Shown here piece after piece: positions 3,192 to 56,366 of a stretch of 64,000 nucleotides of DNA; positions within the stretch are counted from its first letter, which is position 1; every line of letters starts with the position of its first letter. The notes beneath the pieces are model-generated. The model did no database searches. It saw only the letters and a list, made by a program, of their open reading frames with translations, and was not told the DNA's origin. The position numbers were made by a program, and so were the translations under genes. The DNA is from Candidatus Enterousia sp. (GTDB taxonomy: Bacteria > Pseudomonadota > Alphaproteobacteria > Rs-D84), in NCBI GenBank assembly GCA_045613925.1, contig JAZLBV010000011.1, forward strand, positions 4,069 through 68,068, written 5' to 3'.

Positions 3192-4013
3192 ATGAAAAAA
3201 ACGTGTATTTTTATCACTTTGTTTTTAAATATACTGTCTGCTAAGGCTGCAACGGTGGTGGCTACTGTAAACGGCAACCCAATAACAGATGCAGATATTA
3301 CTGCACGTACTGAATTAATGGCAAAACAAGGCAATGTATCCGCAACCAATCGTCGTGATGCATTTAAAAACATTGTTGATGATTATGTCAAATTAAACTA
3401 TGCGGCAAATTTTAATGTTAAACCCACAGATAAAGATGCAGATACAGAATTAAAAAAAATGAATCTGGGCGATATGAATGAAACTATGTGGGCTATGGCA
3501 CGTCTGGCGGTACGGTCAGACATTGCATGGGGCGTGGTAATGTCGCGGACTATTGTTCCAACCATAGATGTTTCACGTGAAGAAATTCAGCGTGAACGTC
3601 GTGATTTAATCCGCGAACGTGGATTACCAATTGAAATGGAAATTGTTCGCTTGGTTGATATCCCAGATGATATGACACAAAAATTAACAAAACCTAAAAA
3701 TTGCGACGCAGCTGTTAGTATGGTTGAAAAATTGGGTGGCGATCCACAAAGATTTACAGCTGTGCAGTATGAATTATCATCTGATATTCGCAACAGAATT
3801 GCCGATTTACCATCCTTGACTTGGTCGCCTGTCAAAGACAATTCTGTAATTTTAGTGTGCAGCGAAAAAAAGACAAATGAATACAAAAATCTTGATGAAA
3901 TAATTAAACAAAATGCCATTTATCGCAAAGCATCTTTTGTTTCAGATCAACAATTAAAGCAACTTCGCCGCAAAGCTGTTATTATCATAAATGACGATAG
4001 ATATAAATTATGA
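3192..4013 (+). CDS. SurA-like periplasmic chaperone
   Basis: Signal peptide, VVATVNG.PIT..DI motif of the SurA N-terminal domain; canonical position after lptD. Confidence 0.7.
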   Translation: MKKTCIFITLFLNILSAKAATVVATVNGNPITDADITARTELMAKQGNVSATNRRDAFKNIVDDYVKLNYAANFNVKPTDKDADTELKKMNLGDMNETMWAMARLAVRSDIAWGVVMSRTIVPTIDVSREEIQRERRDLIRERGLPIEMEIVRLVDIPDDMTQKLTKPKNCDAAVSMVEKLGGDPQRFTAVQYELSSDIRNRIADLPSLTWSPVKDNSVILVCSEKKTNEYKNLDEIIKQNAIYRKASFVSDQQLKQLRRKAVIIINDDRYKL

Positions 4014-11129: not shown

Positions 11130-11690
11130 ATGGATAATAAAGAAAAATTTGTAAAATACGAAAAATTATTAAAACAATGGTCTGAAAAAATGAACCTTGT
11201 CGCACCAAGCACTTTGGTCGACATTCAGCACAGACATTTTGACGACAGCGCCCAATTGGCCGATTTTATCCCAAAAAACGCAAAAATTATCGATTTAGGA
11301 AGCGGTGCAGGTTTTCCGGGTGTAGTTCTGGCAATTTTGGGTTGGAACGTCATTTGTATCGAATCAATTTCAAAAAAGGCCGGCTTTTTATCAATTTTGA
11401 AGCAAGAATTAGATTTACCAAACCTGACTATTATTAACGATAGAATAGAAAATTTTTTTGCGAAAAGGCCGGTAAATGCCGGGGATTTTATATTGACCGC
11501 ACGGGCATTTGCACCGTTGATAAAGATTTTTGATTATACACACCGAACAAATTTCCGGCTTTTTTTGCTAAAAGGCCGGGAAATCAAAACCGAAATTGCG
11601 ACTGCAAAAAAGAAATATAAATTCGATTATGAATTACACCCATCAAAAACTGGCGACGGTTTTATTATTTGCGTAAAAAACTTAAAATAA
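11130..11690 (+). CDS. rsmG: 16S rRNA m7G527 methyltransferase RsmG (GidB)
   Basis: W..KMNLVA, RHF.DS.QL, IDLGSGAGFPG, TARAFAPL; precedes parAB. Confidence 0.92.
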   Translation: MDNKEKFVKYEKLLKQWSEKMNLVAPSTLVDIQHRHFDDSAQLADFIPKNAKIIDLGSGAGFPGVVLAILGWNVICIESISKKAGFLSILKQELDLPNLTIINDRIENFFAKRPVNAGDFILTARAFAPLIKIFDYTHRTNFRLFLLKGREIKTEIATAKKKYKFDYELHPSKTGDGFIICVKNLK

Positions 11691-11808
11691 AAACATTATT
11701 TCATATGAAACAAAATACAACTTTTTGTTTTTAGTGTATTTTTATTTTATATTGACTATTTTTCTTTTATTTTATATTCTTGGTTTTGAAAGATTAAGGA
11801 AACAAAAA

Positions 11809-12588
11809 ATGGCAAAAATAATATCTTTTGCAAATCAAAAAGGCGGTGTAGGAAAAACAACAACAGCCATAAACATTGCAGCATCGTTGGCTGCTATAAA
11901 AAAACGTGTCTTGTTGATAGACTTGGATTCACAGGGAAATGCTGGTACTGGATTGGGTTTTGTTCGCGCTTCACACAAACAAAGTATTTACGGTGTATTG
12001 ATGGGAAATGCCGGTATTATTGAAAATATTTTAACCACAGCAATACCAAACATGCATATTTTACCGGCATCTGCAAAATTAGCCGGCGCAGAATTAGATA
12101 TGCTTGATATGGAACAACGCGAATACCGCCTGCGCGATGCTTTAAAAACAGTAGATAACAACTATGATTATATATTGATTGATTGCCCACCTGCCCTGGG
12201 AATTTTAACAATAAATGCACTTAGTGCATCAGATTACGTTATTATACCATTACAGTGTGAATTTTTCGCCCTGGAAGGTGTTCAACAATTACTATCAACT
12301 ATTACGGCCATACAACAAAAATGGAATTCAAAACTTGAAATTTTGGGTATGGTATTGACCATGTATGATAAGAAACTAGGCCTTACACGCGCAGTAGAAG
12401 AAGACGTCCGAAATACGTTTGGCAACAAAGTTTTCAAGACGGTTATTCCACGAAATGTACGCATTTCAGAAGCCCCCAGCCATGGTAAACCCGCCCTATT
12501 CTATGATTTCAAATCATCGGGCGCCCAGGCATATTTACGTGTCGCAACTGAAGTTGTTAACGCATTGGAACAAAAGGATATAAAATGA
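11809..12588 (+). CDS. parA: Chromosome partitioning ATPase ParA/Soj
   Basis: ANQKGGVGKTTT deviant Walker A, DLDSQGNA, DCPPALG, RNVRISEAPSHG; AAGGA RBS before ATG 11809. Confidence 0.95.
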   Translation: MAKIISFANQKGGVGKTTTAINIAASLAAIKKRVLLIDLDSQGNAGTGLGFVRASHKQSIYGVLMGNAGIIENILTTAIPNMHILPASAKLAGAELDMLDMEQREYRLRDALKTVDNNYDYILIDCPPALGILTINALSASDYVIIPLQCEFFALEGVQQLLSTITAIQQKWNSKLEILGMVLTMYDKKLGLTRAVEEDVRNTFGNKVFKTVIPRNVRISEAPSHGKPALFYDFKSSGAQAYLRVATEVVNALEQKDIK

Positions 12589-13460
12589 CATCTAAATTTT
12601 TGGGAAAATCTCTTGCACAATTAAATCAAGAAATGGGGCAAATACCGGATATTTCTGTATTAACTGGGGGTGAACGCGTGGTTGTAAAACCTATTCCATT
12701 GGTACAAATTAGCCCAAACCCTGATCAACCACGAAAAACTTTTTCAGAAGCAGAATTGCGGGATTTATCAGAATCTATACGTGAAAAAGGCGTATTGGTT
12801 CCAATTATATTGCGAACCGTTCAAAACAAACCATATGTTTATGAAATTGTCGCGGGCGAACGTCGATATCGTGCAGCACAAATGGCCGGATTAAGCGAAA
12901 TTCCGGCATTGGTAAAGACTATGACAAATCAAAACGCAATGGAAATTGCATTAATTGAAAACGTACAACGTGAAAACCTGAACCCAATAGAAGAGGCCGA
13001 AGGTTATAAAAACCTGATGGAAAAGTGCGGATACACTATTGCAGATGTATCAAAATTAATTGGAAAATCTGAAAGCTATATTCGCAACCTTACACGCATA
13101 GTTTCATTGCCTGAATCTGTCAAAGAATTGGTAAAAAGCGGTGAATTGTCGGCATCACACGCACGTACAATCGCAGTATCAGATAATCCAGAACAGCTTG
13201 CACACGATATTATAAATAATAAACTATCTGTTGCAGATGCACAAAAATGTGTAAAAGATACCAATCGTTCAAAACGTTGCCGGTCTTTCGTTAAAACAAC
13301 ATTAAACAAAGAATATGTTGAAAAAATCGAATCAAAATTGCAAAAAACTTTAAAAACACCGGTAAAATTGCGTGAAAAACGGGGTGGGGCTGGCGAAATT
13401 ATTATTTCATTCGGCAGTCGTATCCAAATGGAAGATTTAATTGAAAAACTAACAAAATAG
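12585..13460 (+). CDS. parB: Chromosome partitioning protein ParB/Spo0J
   Basis: NPDQPRKTF, GERRYRAA CTP-binding motif, IENVQRENLNPIEEA, HTH. Confidence 0.95.
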   Translation: MTSKFLGKSLAQLNQEMGQIPDISVLTGGERVVVKPIPLVQISPNPDQPRKTFSEAELRDLSESIREKGVLVPIILRTVQNKPYVYEIVAGERRYRAAQMAGLSEIPALVKTMTNQNAMEIALIENVQRENLNPIEEAEGYKNLMEKCGYTIADVSKLIGKSESYIRNLTRIVSLPESVKELVKSGELSASHARTIAVSDNPEQLAHDIINNKLSVADAQKCVKDTNRSKRCRSFVKTTLNKEYVEKIESKLQKTLKTPVKLREKRGGAGEIIISFGSRIQMEDLIEKLTK

Positions 13461-13473
13461 GATGAAAATAAAA

Positions 13474-13507
13474 ATAAAAAAATACCGGCAAATGCCGGTA
13501 TTTTTTT
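13474..13507. terminator. Bidirectional terminator parB/pal
   Basis: AAAAAAATACCGGC-AAAT-GCCGGTATTTTTTT. Confidence 0.85.
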
Positions 13508-13519
13508 ATTTTTCAACAA

Positions 13520-30573: not shown

Positions 30574-30590
30574 TACATTGAAATTTCTAG

Positions 30591-30618
30591 AAAAGGCCGG
30601 TAAATACCGGCCTTTTTT
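30591..30618 (+). terminator. Terminator after mreB
   Basis: AAAAGGCCGGTA-AA-TACCGGCCTTTTTT. Confidence 0.85.
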
Positions 30619-30657
30619 ATTAGTTTTTTTAAAAAATAAGTTTTTAAGTGTTTTTAT

Positions 30658-54454: not shown

Positions 54455-54506
54455 AAAAAATTACCGGCCTTTTTGAAATTTTTTATCGAAAAGGCCGGTA
54501 TTTTTT
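54455..54506 (-). terminator. Inverted repeat downstream of ychF
   Basis: TACCGGCCTTTT ... AAAAGGCCGGTA 12-bp arms flanked by A/T tracts. Confidence 0.65.
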
Positions 54507-55667: not shown

Positions 55668-56366
55668 ATGTCATACCTTTGGCAAGAATTCAATATAAAA
55701 ACTTTCCCGGCGGAAACTTTGGTTTTTCGTGATGGTGTTTTTTATGATGATTTATCTGATTATGAAAATGGATATTTTGATTCTGAAAAAAATTTAATAA
55801 TTATAAATAAAACTCCAAAATTGCCGGTACATATTATATATATTGGTGAAATTGCCGGGAATTTTGATATAAATGTTGATTTATCTGCACAAAATACTAA
55901 TGTTTTTTTAACAGCAAAAATAATTAACAAAAAGCCGGCCTTTTTGAACATTTTTATCAAAAACACCGGAAAAAATAGTGTATTAAAAGGACAAATTATA
56001 GCACAAAATTATAATTTGCTGAAAATAGAAGAAAAAGCACAACATTTTTGCGAAAATACCGGTATTTTCTTAAAAAATCGCATTTTGGCACATAAAAATT
56101 CAGATACAGAATTAAATGGCTATGCGATTATAGATAAAAATTTACCAAATTGTGATTCTGATGTGTCTTTTTCTGTTATGGCTGATAAAGATGCAAAAAT
56201 AAAAATGAAGCCGACACAATATATAAAATCAGTTCCAAATTCTGCAAAACATTCAGCGTCTTTATATACCCCTACAGAAAATCAAATAAATTATTTACGT
56301 GAATCTGGACTTTCTGGGGTTGAAGTCAAAGATCTTTTACAAGAGGCGTTTTTAAGCCAAGAATAA
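55668..56366 (+). CDS. SufB/SufD-like beta-helix protein (short)
   Basis: C-terminal P....H.AS......QI.YL...G motif typical of SufBD; only 232 aa. Confidence 0.55.
   Translation: MSYLWQEFNIKTFPAETLVFRDGVFYDDLSDYENGYFDSEKNLIIINKTPKLPVHIIYIGEIAGNFDINVDLSAQNTNVFLTAKIINKKPAFLNIFIKNTGKNSVLKGQIIAQNYNLLKIEEKAQHFCENTGIFLKNRILAHKNSDTELNGYAIIDKNLPNCDSDVSFSVMADKDAKIKMKPTQYIKSVPNSAKHSASLYTPTENQINYLRESGLSGVEVKDLLQEAFLSQE

Follow-up and report, generated by a model that had tools for sequence, protein, structure and literature searches.

The ParB–parS pair is held to be among the most conserved protein–DNA codes in bacteria. Two DNA-reading residues of ParB, R173 and G201 in Caulobacter, are reported as absolutely conserved in published surveys, and the first of these forms hydrogen bonds with guanine 1 of parS (Jalal et al. 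2020, PMC7383237, in which parS is numbered T0 G1 T2 T3 T4 C5 A6 C7). The locus described here has neither residue, and it raises the question of which DNA such a ParB would read. It comes from Candidatus Enterousia, an alphaproteobacterium of gut and rumen that is uncultured and has a reduced genome (PMC12306168), and lies in a window of 64,000 nucleotides, the whole stretch of DNA that was analysed. The window belongs to a 95%-complete assembly of 870 kb in 19 contigs, where parB is the only gene with an HTH_ParB domain. From the sequences compared, it is probable that the recognition helix of this ParB has been rewired, with loading most likely at a relaxed derivative of parS and no new centromere. 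The protein and its DNA site appear to have drifted together. The features discussed below are collected in Table 1.

Table 1. Features of the rsmG-parA-parB locus (window coordinates), and the ParBs without R173 in three other Rs-D84 genomes (genome, contig and position)
Feature	Position	Strand	Remark
rsmG (gidB)	11130..11690	+	Gene 1 of the usual rsmG-parA-parB order
parS-derived palindrome TATTTCATATGAAACA	11697..11712	no strand	Between the rsmG stop (11690) and the parA start (11809)
Promoter-like TTGACT-17-TATTCT, parAB	11752..11780	+	Consensus match only
parA, Walker-type partition ATPase	11809..12588	+	AAGGAA ribosome-binding site precedes the ATG
parB	12585..13460	+	291 aa; ParB_N (CTPase), HTH_ParB and ParB_C domains
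QPR motif of ParB	12726-12734	+	Intact
GERRYRA CTP-binding motif, G91-A97	12855..12875	+	Intact in ParB
ENVQR motif of ParB	12957-12971	+	Intact
Recognition-helix block G160-S174, GKSESYIRNLTRIVS	13062..13106	+	ParB
E163 codon	13071-13073	+	Aligned with Caulobacter R173
R167 codon	13083-13085	+	Aligned with Caulobacter A177
S191-H-A-R194	13155..13166	+	Equivalent to Caulobacter G201-R204
Two-way intrinsic terminator	13470..13513	no strand	Between parB and a convergent pal-like gene
G029 ParB, GKSQSYVSN	G029:C40:9122-9850 (L036)		
G036 ParB, GKTQGHVSN	G036:C7:1282-1866 (L037)		
G025 ParB, SKSLAYISN	G025:C5:169325-169921 (L038)		

The parB reading frame described in the initial annotation is present. 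Its recognition region has the sequence GKSESYIRNLTRIVSLP...ELSASHAR, and residues 91-97 preserve GERRYRA. The gene stands last in its operon, with the parA stop overlapping its start. Pfam finds ParB_N (PF02195, 112 bits), HTH_ParB (PF17762, 92.5 bits) and ParB_C (PF23552, 28.1 bits with a cut-off of 23.8), and the NCBIfam ParB/RepB/Spo0J model TIGR00180 is passed at 191 bits (cut-off 58). GERR and the residues E125, N126 and R129 are invariant across 150 diverse ParBs. The N-terminal LG(R/K)GL peptide of ParB stimulates ParA; a peptide of this type reads FLGKSLAQL here and GLGRGLADL across most of the genus. An AF2 model of the protein (mean pLDDT 80.8) places helices at 152-159 and at 163-174 and a C-terminal domain of helix-strand-strand-helix form at 242-290, and Foldseek ranks 6T1F, a complex of Caulobacter ParB with parS, first among its PDB matches (target-normalised TM-score 0.78-0.81). 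By alignment to 6T1F the helix at 163-174 is the recognition helix of the HTH; in the model E163 is its first residue and R167 lies one turn in.

These properties are shared with the canonical ParB and Spo0J proteins that use the parS TGTTNCACGTGAAACA, e.g. those of Caulobacter (6T1F, 6S6H), Thermus (Spo0J, 1VZ0) and Myxococcus (7BNK): the three-domain architecture, the CTP motifs, the HTH fold and the rsmG-parA-parB operon are common to all. Because of this architecture and gene context we class the protein as a chromosomal ParB. It is likely to be a working one, a CTP-dependent clamp that partners ParA, with the clamp function predicted from these conserved parts. It departs from the literature in two features that are treated as defining, namely R173/G201 and a canonical parS.

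In order to place the DNA-reading residues, we aligned the protein formally with Caulobacter ParB. The phmmer search of all PDB chains gives an alignment to 6T1F (E 1.3e-50) that is gapless through the HTH region, with ligkSEsyirnLtrivSlp...elsaShar here and tigkSRshvanTmrllAlp...eltaGhar in 6T1F. E163 pairs with R173, L169 with T179, S174 with A184, S191 with G201 and I152 with Q162. The initial annotation read E/L/S/S at the equivalents of R173, T179, A184 and G201; the formal alignment bears this reading out, with Glu and not Arg at the 173-equivalent. The set was also rightly said to match neither the parS-type residues nor the Q/K/K/R of Noc. Not every canonical contact has gone, since G170, K171, S172, N178 and R204 are all retained. 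Beyond the loss of R173, the departures from canonical ParBs across Enterousia are Gly201 to Ser, Gln162 to Ile, Leu or Met, and Ala177 to Arg or Lys.

The four residues had been put forward together as switched, and this part of the claim needs to be narrowed. A phmmer search of 1.84 billion cluster representatives, with the best 149 aligned, gives R at 173 in 141 and G at 201 in 136 of these diverse ParBs, and positions 179 and 184 are highly variable among them; the same two positions are described as naturally variable in PMC7383237. The mutant library of that study has R173 in every parS-specific variant and tolerates C, S or T at 201. Relatives from the same order that carry R173 together with a perfect parS also have one or other of S and T there. 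Therefore only the change at 173 is informative, and G201S, T179L and A184S are set aside as specificity switches. We also play down the replacement of Q162 by I, L or M as a second lost contact, as His occurs at this position in three relatives with R173 and perfect parS (G028, G032 and G033) and in 13 of the 149 representatives.

The loss of R173 extends through the whole lineage. None of 25 Enterousia species has Arg at 163 (13 have Glu, three Asp, four Ala, four Val and one Thr), and neither does any of the 120 closest metagenomic homologues (E73/A22/V21/T2/I1/G1). The latter are the best 120 of 7,710 homologues at E<=1e-20, all of them at least 79% identical and with strongly conserved columns. 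An absence on this scale is not a sequencing quirk. Among the 120, the entropy at position 163 is 1.54 bits, with 160-162 and 164-169 invariant, which indicates that constraint on the side chain at 163 has been lifted in a helix that is otherwise under strong constraint. Within the closest clade, too, the position varies (E, A, V, T, V), and such free variation argues against a new specific contact made by Glu.

Another residue of the helix has changed along with it, an Arg gain that is absent from the residue set considered earlier. At position 167, equivalent to Caulobacter A177, 23 of the 25 genus species have Arg and two have Lys, and the Arg is invariant in the 120 closest homologues. In the alignment of the best 149 representatives, position 177 is Ala in 103, Thr in 24, Ser in 14, Gly in two and Val in one. 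A basic residue is found there in only five, none of them among the 141 with R173; they are five of the eight representatives that lack it, and all five share the recognition-helix type of the ParB studied here (SYIRN or SYLKN). Positions 163 and 167, in an i/i+4 relation, share one face of the helix. Across these alignments the changes at E163 and R167 are coupled.

Our sample of the order Rs-D84 covers 41 genomes, including 25 from Enterousia and 11 read as R173-bearing. Each of the 11 R173-bearing genomes has between one and eight palindromic parS (perfect in nine genomes, with one central mismatch in two), and usually one of these lies within about 1 kb upstream of parB. No canonical parS is present at <=1 mismatch in the 870-kb genome, and no perfect one in the 25 Enterousia genomes.

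The initial annotation had suggested that this ParB recognises a different centromere, with AAAAGGCCGGTATTTT as the candidate. Words like AAAAGGCCGGTATTTT are indeed over-represented, with nine copies at <=2 mismatches in the window and 0.17 expected, and this excess is what would favour the use of an unrelated centromere. Both the exact and the one-mismatch copies, together with that at 13489-13504, form arms of hairpins with a GC stem, which lie between A and T runs at gene ends (e.g. 13470-13513, at -29 kcal/mol; 30590-30620; 54455-54506); the remaining two-mismatch copies have no strong hairpin. These hairpins are intrinsic terminators, and as arms of terminators the AAAAGGCCGGTATTTT words are rejected as a centromere. 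The near-identical stem that the terminators share explains the excess. Also against an unrelated centromere are the unchanged G160, K161, S162, N168 and R194, and the presence of a parS derivative at the ancestral parS position, which is described below. A switch of this kind is thus very improbable. As a separate observation, the terminators of the window form a family with a near-identical stem (..ACCGGC/GCCGGT.. or GGCCGG), which comprises the three hairpins above and a further one at 55929-55975.

What does occupy the place where the relatives have parS is TATTTCATATGAAACA, a three-mismatch derivative of the canonical site. It lies 7 bp past the rsmG stop, 97 bp ahead of the parA ATG and 40 bp upstream of the promoter-like element, and it is the sole match to the 12-bp core TTTCAYRTGAAA in the 870-kb assembly. 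We searched for such sites in parB loci with flanks of about 1.5 kb, using the pattern TTTCANNTGAAA. This is found about 885 bp upstream of parB, i.e. upstream of parA, in 23 of the 24 assessable genomes of the genus. Fourteen of these have two copies, the second as a rule some 110 bp farther upstream, and the four closest species have just one site in each genome. In one Enterousia genome, G012, no parS-like site lies beside parAB. A distant member of the clade, whose I173/K177 ParB shares 51% identity, carries TATTTCACGTGAAACC within rsmG, 440 bp ahead of parA. For the second sites we also observe that a conserved CCGGT/CCGGC word (e.g. TTGCCGGTAATTTCA..) precedes about 10 of the 14 (loci L006-L025), with its complement following the site in a few genomes; the second site may overlap the terminator hairpin of rsmG.

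Aligned, the sites of the genus read T-R-TTTCA-Y-R-TGAAA-Y-A, with flanks that cannot be aligned. At the same place upstream of parA, the outgroups have TGTTTCACGTGAAACA, or TGTTTCACATGAAACA in one genome, and Enterousia has TRTTTCAYRTGAAAYA. The base at position 1, which R173 reads in canonical systems, is A in 55 and G in 19 of 74 genus half-sites and never C or T, as against G in all eight outgroup half-sites. Position 7 is T in 51 and C in 23. Position 0 is more mixed (T48/A21/C4/G1), and two bases further out the flank is A17/C9/G26/T22. The search pattern fixed positions 2-6, leaving the purine-only position 1 and the pyrimidine-only position 7 free to vary. In common with canonical parS, then, the site has TTTCA/TGAAA arms at the ancestral position; it differs in having A or G at position 1 and a YR centre. 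The suggestion of a different centromere is right in that the likely centromere departs from canonical parS at the base read by R173, but what we find is a close derivative of parS at the ancestral position and not a foreign sequence. A search by eye, genome by genome, for a relation between the class of residue 163 (acidic or A/V/T) and the base at position 1 revealed no pattern.

How much weight can such a short site bear? By base composition about 0.7 matches to the 12-bp core are expected per genome; there is one here and there are 50 in the 25 genomes. The count is unremarkable, and the case therefore rests on position and conservation: 37 of the 50 matches fall within a short interval ahead of parA, where the ancestral parS lies, and are conserved amid scrambled flanks. 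The reversed pattern, used as a control, occurs once in 25 genomes, although it may itself be an under-represented word. When two mismatches are allowed, the variant consensus has 23 matches in its own genome and the reversed control five, so a few weaker secondary sites are possible. A de novo search of the genome for recurrent near-palindromic 16-mers returned nothing recurrent, and the centromere is thus not one that can be found by copy number here.

Several further places in the genome resemble parS in part. TGTTGCACGTGGAACT, on another contig and outside the window (G000 C16:13932-13947), lies inside an open frame (..NIVARGTFE..), and three other genomes of the genus carry this C16 sequence as TGTTGCACGTGGAACA. 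With position 4 left free in each arm it is a parS of canonical type. It may represent a leftover, a secondary site or just conserved coding sequence. The places at window 3569-3584 and at G000 C2:17295-17310 (TGTTTCACGTGAAGAA and TGTTTCACGTGAAGTA) have one good parS arm each and share the 14-mer TGTTTCACGTGAAG, and C4:620 and C5:6475 share TGTTTCGTRTGAAAYA. These are possible weak secondary sites of ParB.

An alternative is that specificity has not changed at all: canonical parS would still be preferred, the loss of R173 would merely cost affinity, and the sites of this reduced genome would have decayed under AT pressure. The genome is 37% GC, the TTTCA..TGAAA core is intact and G is still found at position 1 in 26% of half-sites. 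The parS binders in the PMC7383237 library are always R173, suggesting that the residue has no easy replacement. However, it would be odd for perfect sites to remain the best ones when none of the 25 genus genomes has one. Position 163 is free to vary and R167 is fixed, which points to a compensated rather than a crippled interface. The absence of transversions at positions 1 and 7, amid scrambled flanks, implies that selection still acts on the variant sequence, even if the purine-only position 1 could partly reflect G-to-A transitions as the easiest path. We therefore regard unchanged specificity as unlikely.

A further alternative concerns the job of the protein. ParB could be mainly a local regulator that binds an operator of parAB, in the manner of KorB, or could be in the course of being lost, and in neither case would it be a centromere clamp. 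In the closest clade each genome has one site, which here stands 40 bp ahead of a promoter-like element, and one family of the order is without any ParB (G027). SMC (TIGR02168) was found in none of the 41 Rs-D84 genomes searched (best score 44 bits, cut-off 567, controls detected), which removes one classical job of ParB-parS across the order. Enterousia differs from canonical systems on both counts: its genomes have only one or two sites each, and there is no SMC for ParB to load. Against this, ParA is retained next to ParB, and conservation extends to the GERRxRA, QPR and ENxQR motifs and to the domain of C-terminal dimerisation. The protein has 7,710 homologues at the threshold given above, with conserved columns in the best 120. 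Nor need a single site be too few, since PMC4368675 reports one parS to be sufficient in Pseudomonas aeruginosa. We consider a regulatory or decaying ParB quite improbable. ParAB is kept in 39 of the 41 genomes, without a condensin to load, and with SMC absent the loading of SMC cannot explain why ParB-parS is retained here.

As for the position of the locus in the chromosome, the cumulative GC skew of contig C11 is flat and at its minimum at about 14-34 kb, beyond which it climbs steadily up to the end of the contig at 152 kb. The parS-like site lies at 15.8 kb of this contig, and dnaA is on contig C14. The skew fits an origin-proximal parAB, and the origin may lie close, though the indication is weak.

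We return to the reading that we prefer, that of a rewired helix at a relaxed parS derivative. R173 has been lost, leaving E163 and its free-to-vary equivalents, and a basic residue (R167, or Lys in a few relatives) has been gained one turn on, where other ParBs have Ala, Ser or Thr. The predicted loading site is T-R-TTTCA-Y-R-TGAAA-Y-A, with a purine, mostly A, at position 1 and the central CG turned into YR. In this genome loading would take place at the single TATTTCATATGAAACA, upstream of the parAB promoter, and we infer from position and conservation that ParB binds it. Dimers of ParB would contact the site through the unchanged residues G160, K161, S162, N168 and R194. Since Arg would no longer read guanine 1, AT pressure could have moved position 1 towards A, still within the purines; its reading seems to be relaxed, not re-specified. 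R167 may make up for the lost affinity through the DNA backbone, or may touch the N7 of the purine. CTP bound in the intact GERRxRA pocket would then close the clamp, which would slide off the site, and ParA would act on the ParB complex through the N-terminal LGK peptide.

A more specific version of this scheme is a natural 'arginine relocation'. Here the basic residue at 177 would replace the two-point contact of R173 with G, either by accepting any purine via N7 or by adding affinity for the backbone, and TGTTTCAC would have become TRTTTCAY without a gene duplication. We put this forward tentatively, as a possibility with rather less than an even chance of being right.

Noc is a known protein of the ParB family with similar changes. 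The Noc proteins of Bacillus and Geobacillus, which bind the NBS TATTTCCCGGGAAATA (6Y93, 7OL9, 7NFU), likewise lack Arg at 173 and have adenine at position 1 of their site. Noc has the set Q173/K179/K184/R201, in place of the E/L/S/S of the Enterousia ParB, and the NBS has C at position 6, in place of A in the Enterousia site. The Noc model TIGR04285 is failed, with 204.3 bits and a cut-off of 315; the NBS at <=2 mismatches does not occur in the assembly; and the Enterousia protein is the sole ParB paralogue of its genome and is paired with ParA. With the wrong residue set, a score below the cut-off, no NBS sites and no second paralogue, Enterousia ParB is not Noc.

The engineered intermediates between ParB and Noc and the one-hybrid library (PMC7383237) offer another comparison. 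In these, residue 173 sets the reading of base 1 and residue 201 tolerates S, T or C, both of which match what is seen in Enterousia. The library varied only 173, 179, 184 and 201, leaving 177 unexplored, and the combination of a non-Arg 173 with Arg 177 thus lies outside its sequence space. A search of the literature on natural non-canonical chromosomal parS and on Enterousia ParB returned nothing on this case.

Rs-D84 has lost R173 at least three times. Apart from Enterousia, ParBs without this residue are found in G029 and G036, which have Q, and in G025, which has L (Table 1). The Q173 of the first two is a residue of the Noc type. All three genomes are like Enterousia in belonging to this order, in lacking a perfect parS and in lacking SMC, as is the case throughout the order. 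Unlike Enterousia they have Ser at 177, and no parS-like palindrome is found beside parAB. These losses look like separate events with another outcome, possibly decay.

Enterousia thus presents a large and abundant gut lineage without both R173 and G201, with a matching change at the base that R173 reads and, in addition, a coupled substitution at 177, a position outside published mutational scans. This makes it a natural test case for how a single-copy and normally important DNA-binding protein and its site change together. There are practical consequences as well: pipelines that look for parS at <=1 mismatch will report 'no parS' for Enterousia genomes, and the variant ParB/parS pair could serve for DNA labelling without cross-reaction with the canonical one. 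If the relocation of the arginine is true, it would mean that chromosomal systems present in single copy allow the 'invariant' code of ParB and parS to drift, and that such drift may come easier where SMC loading is not needed.
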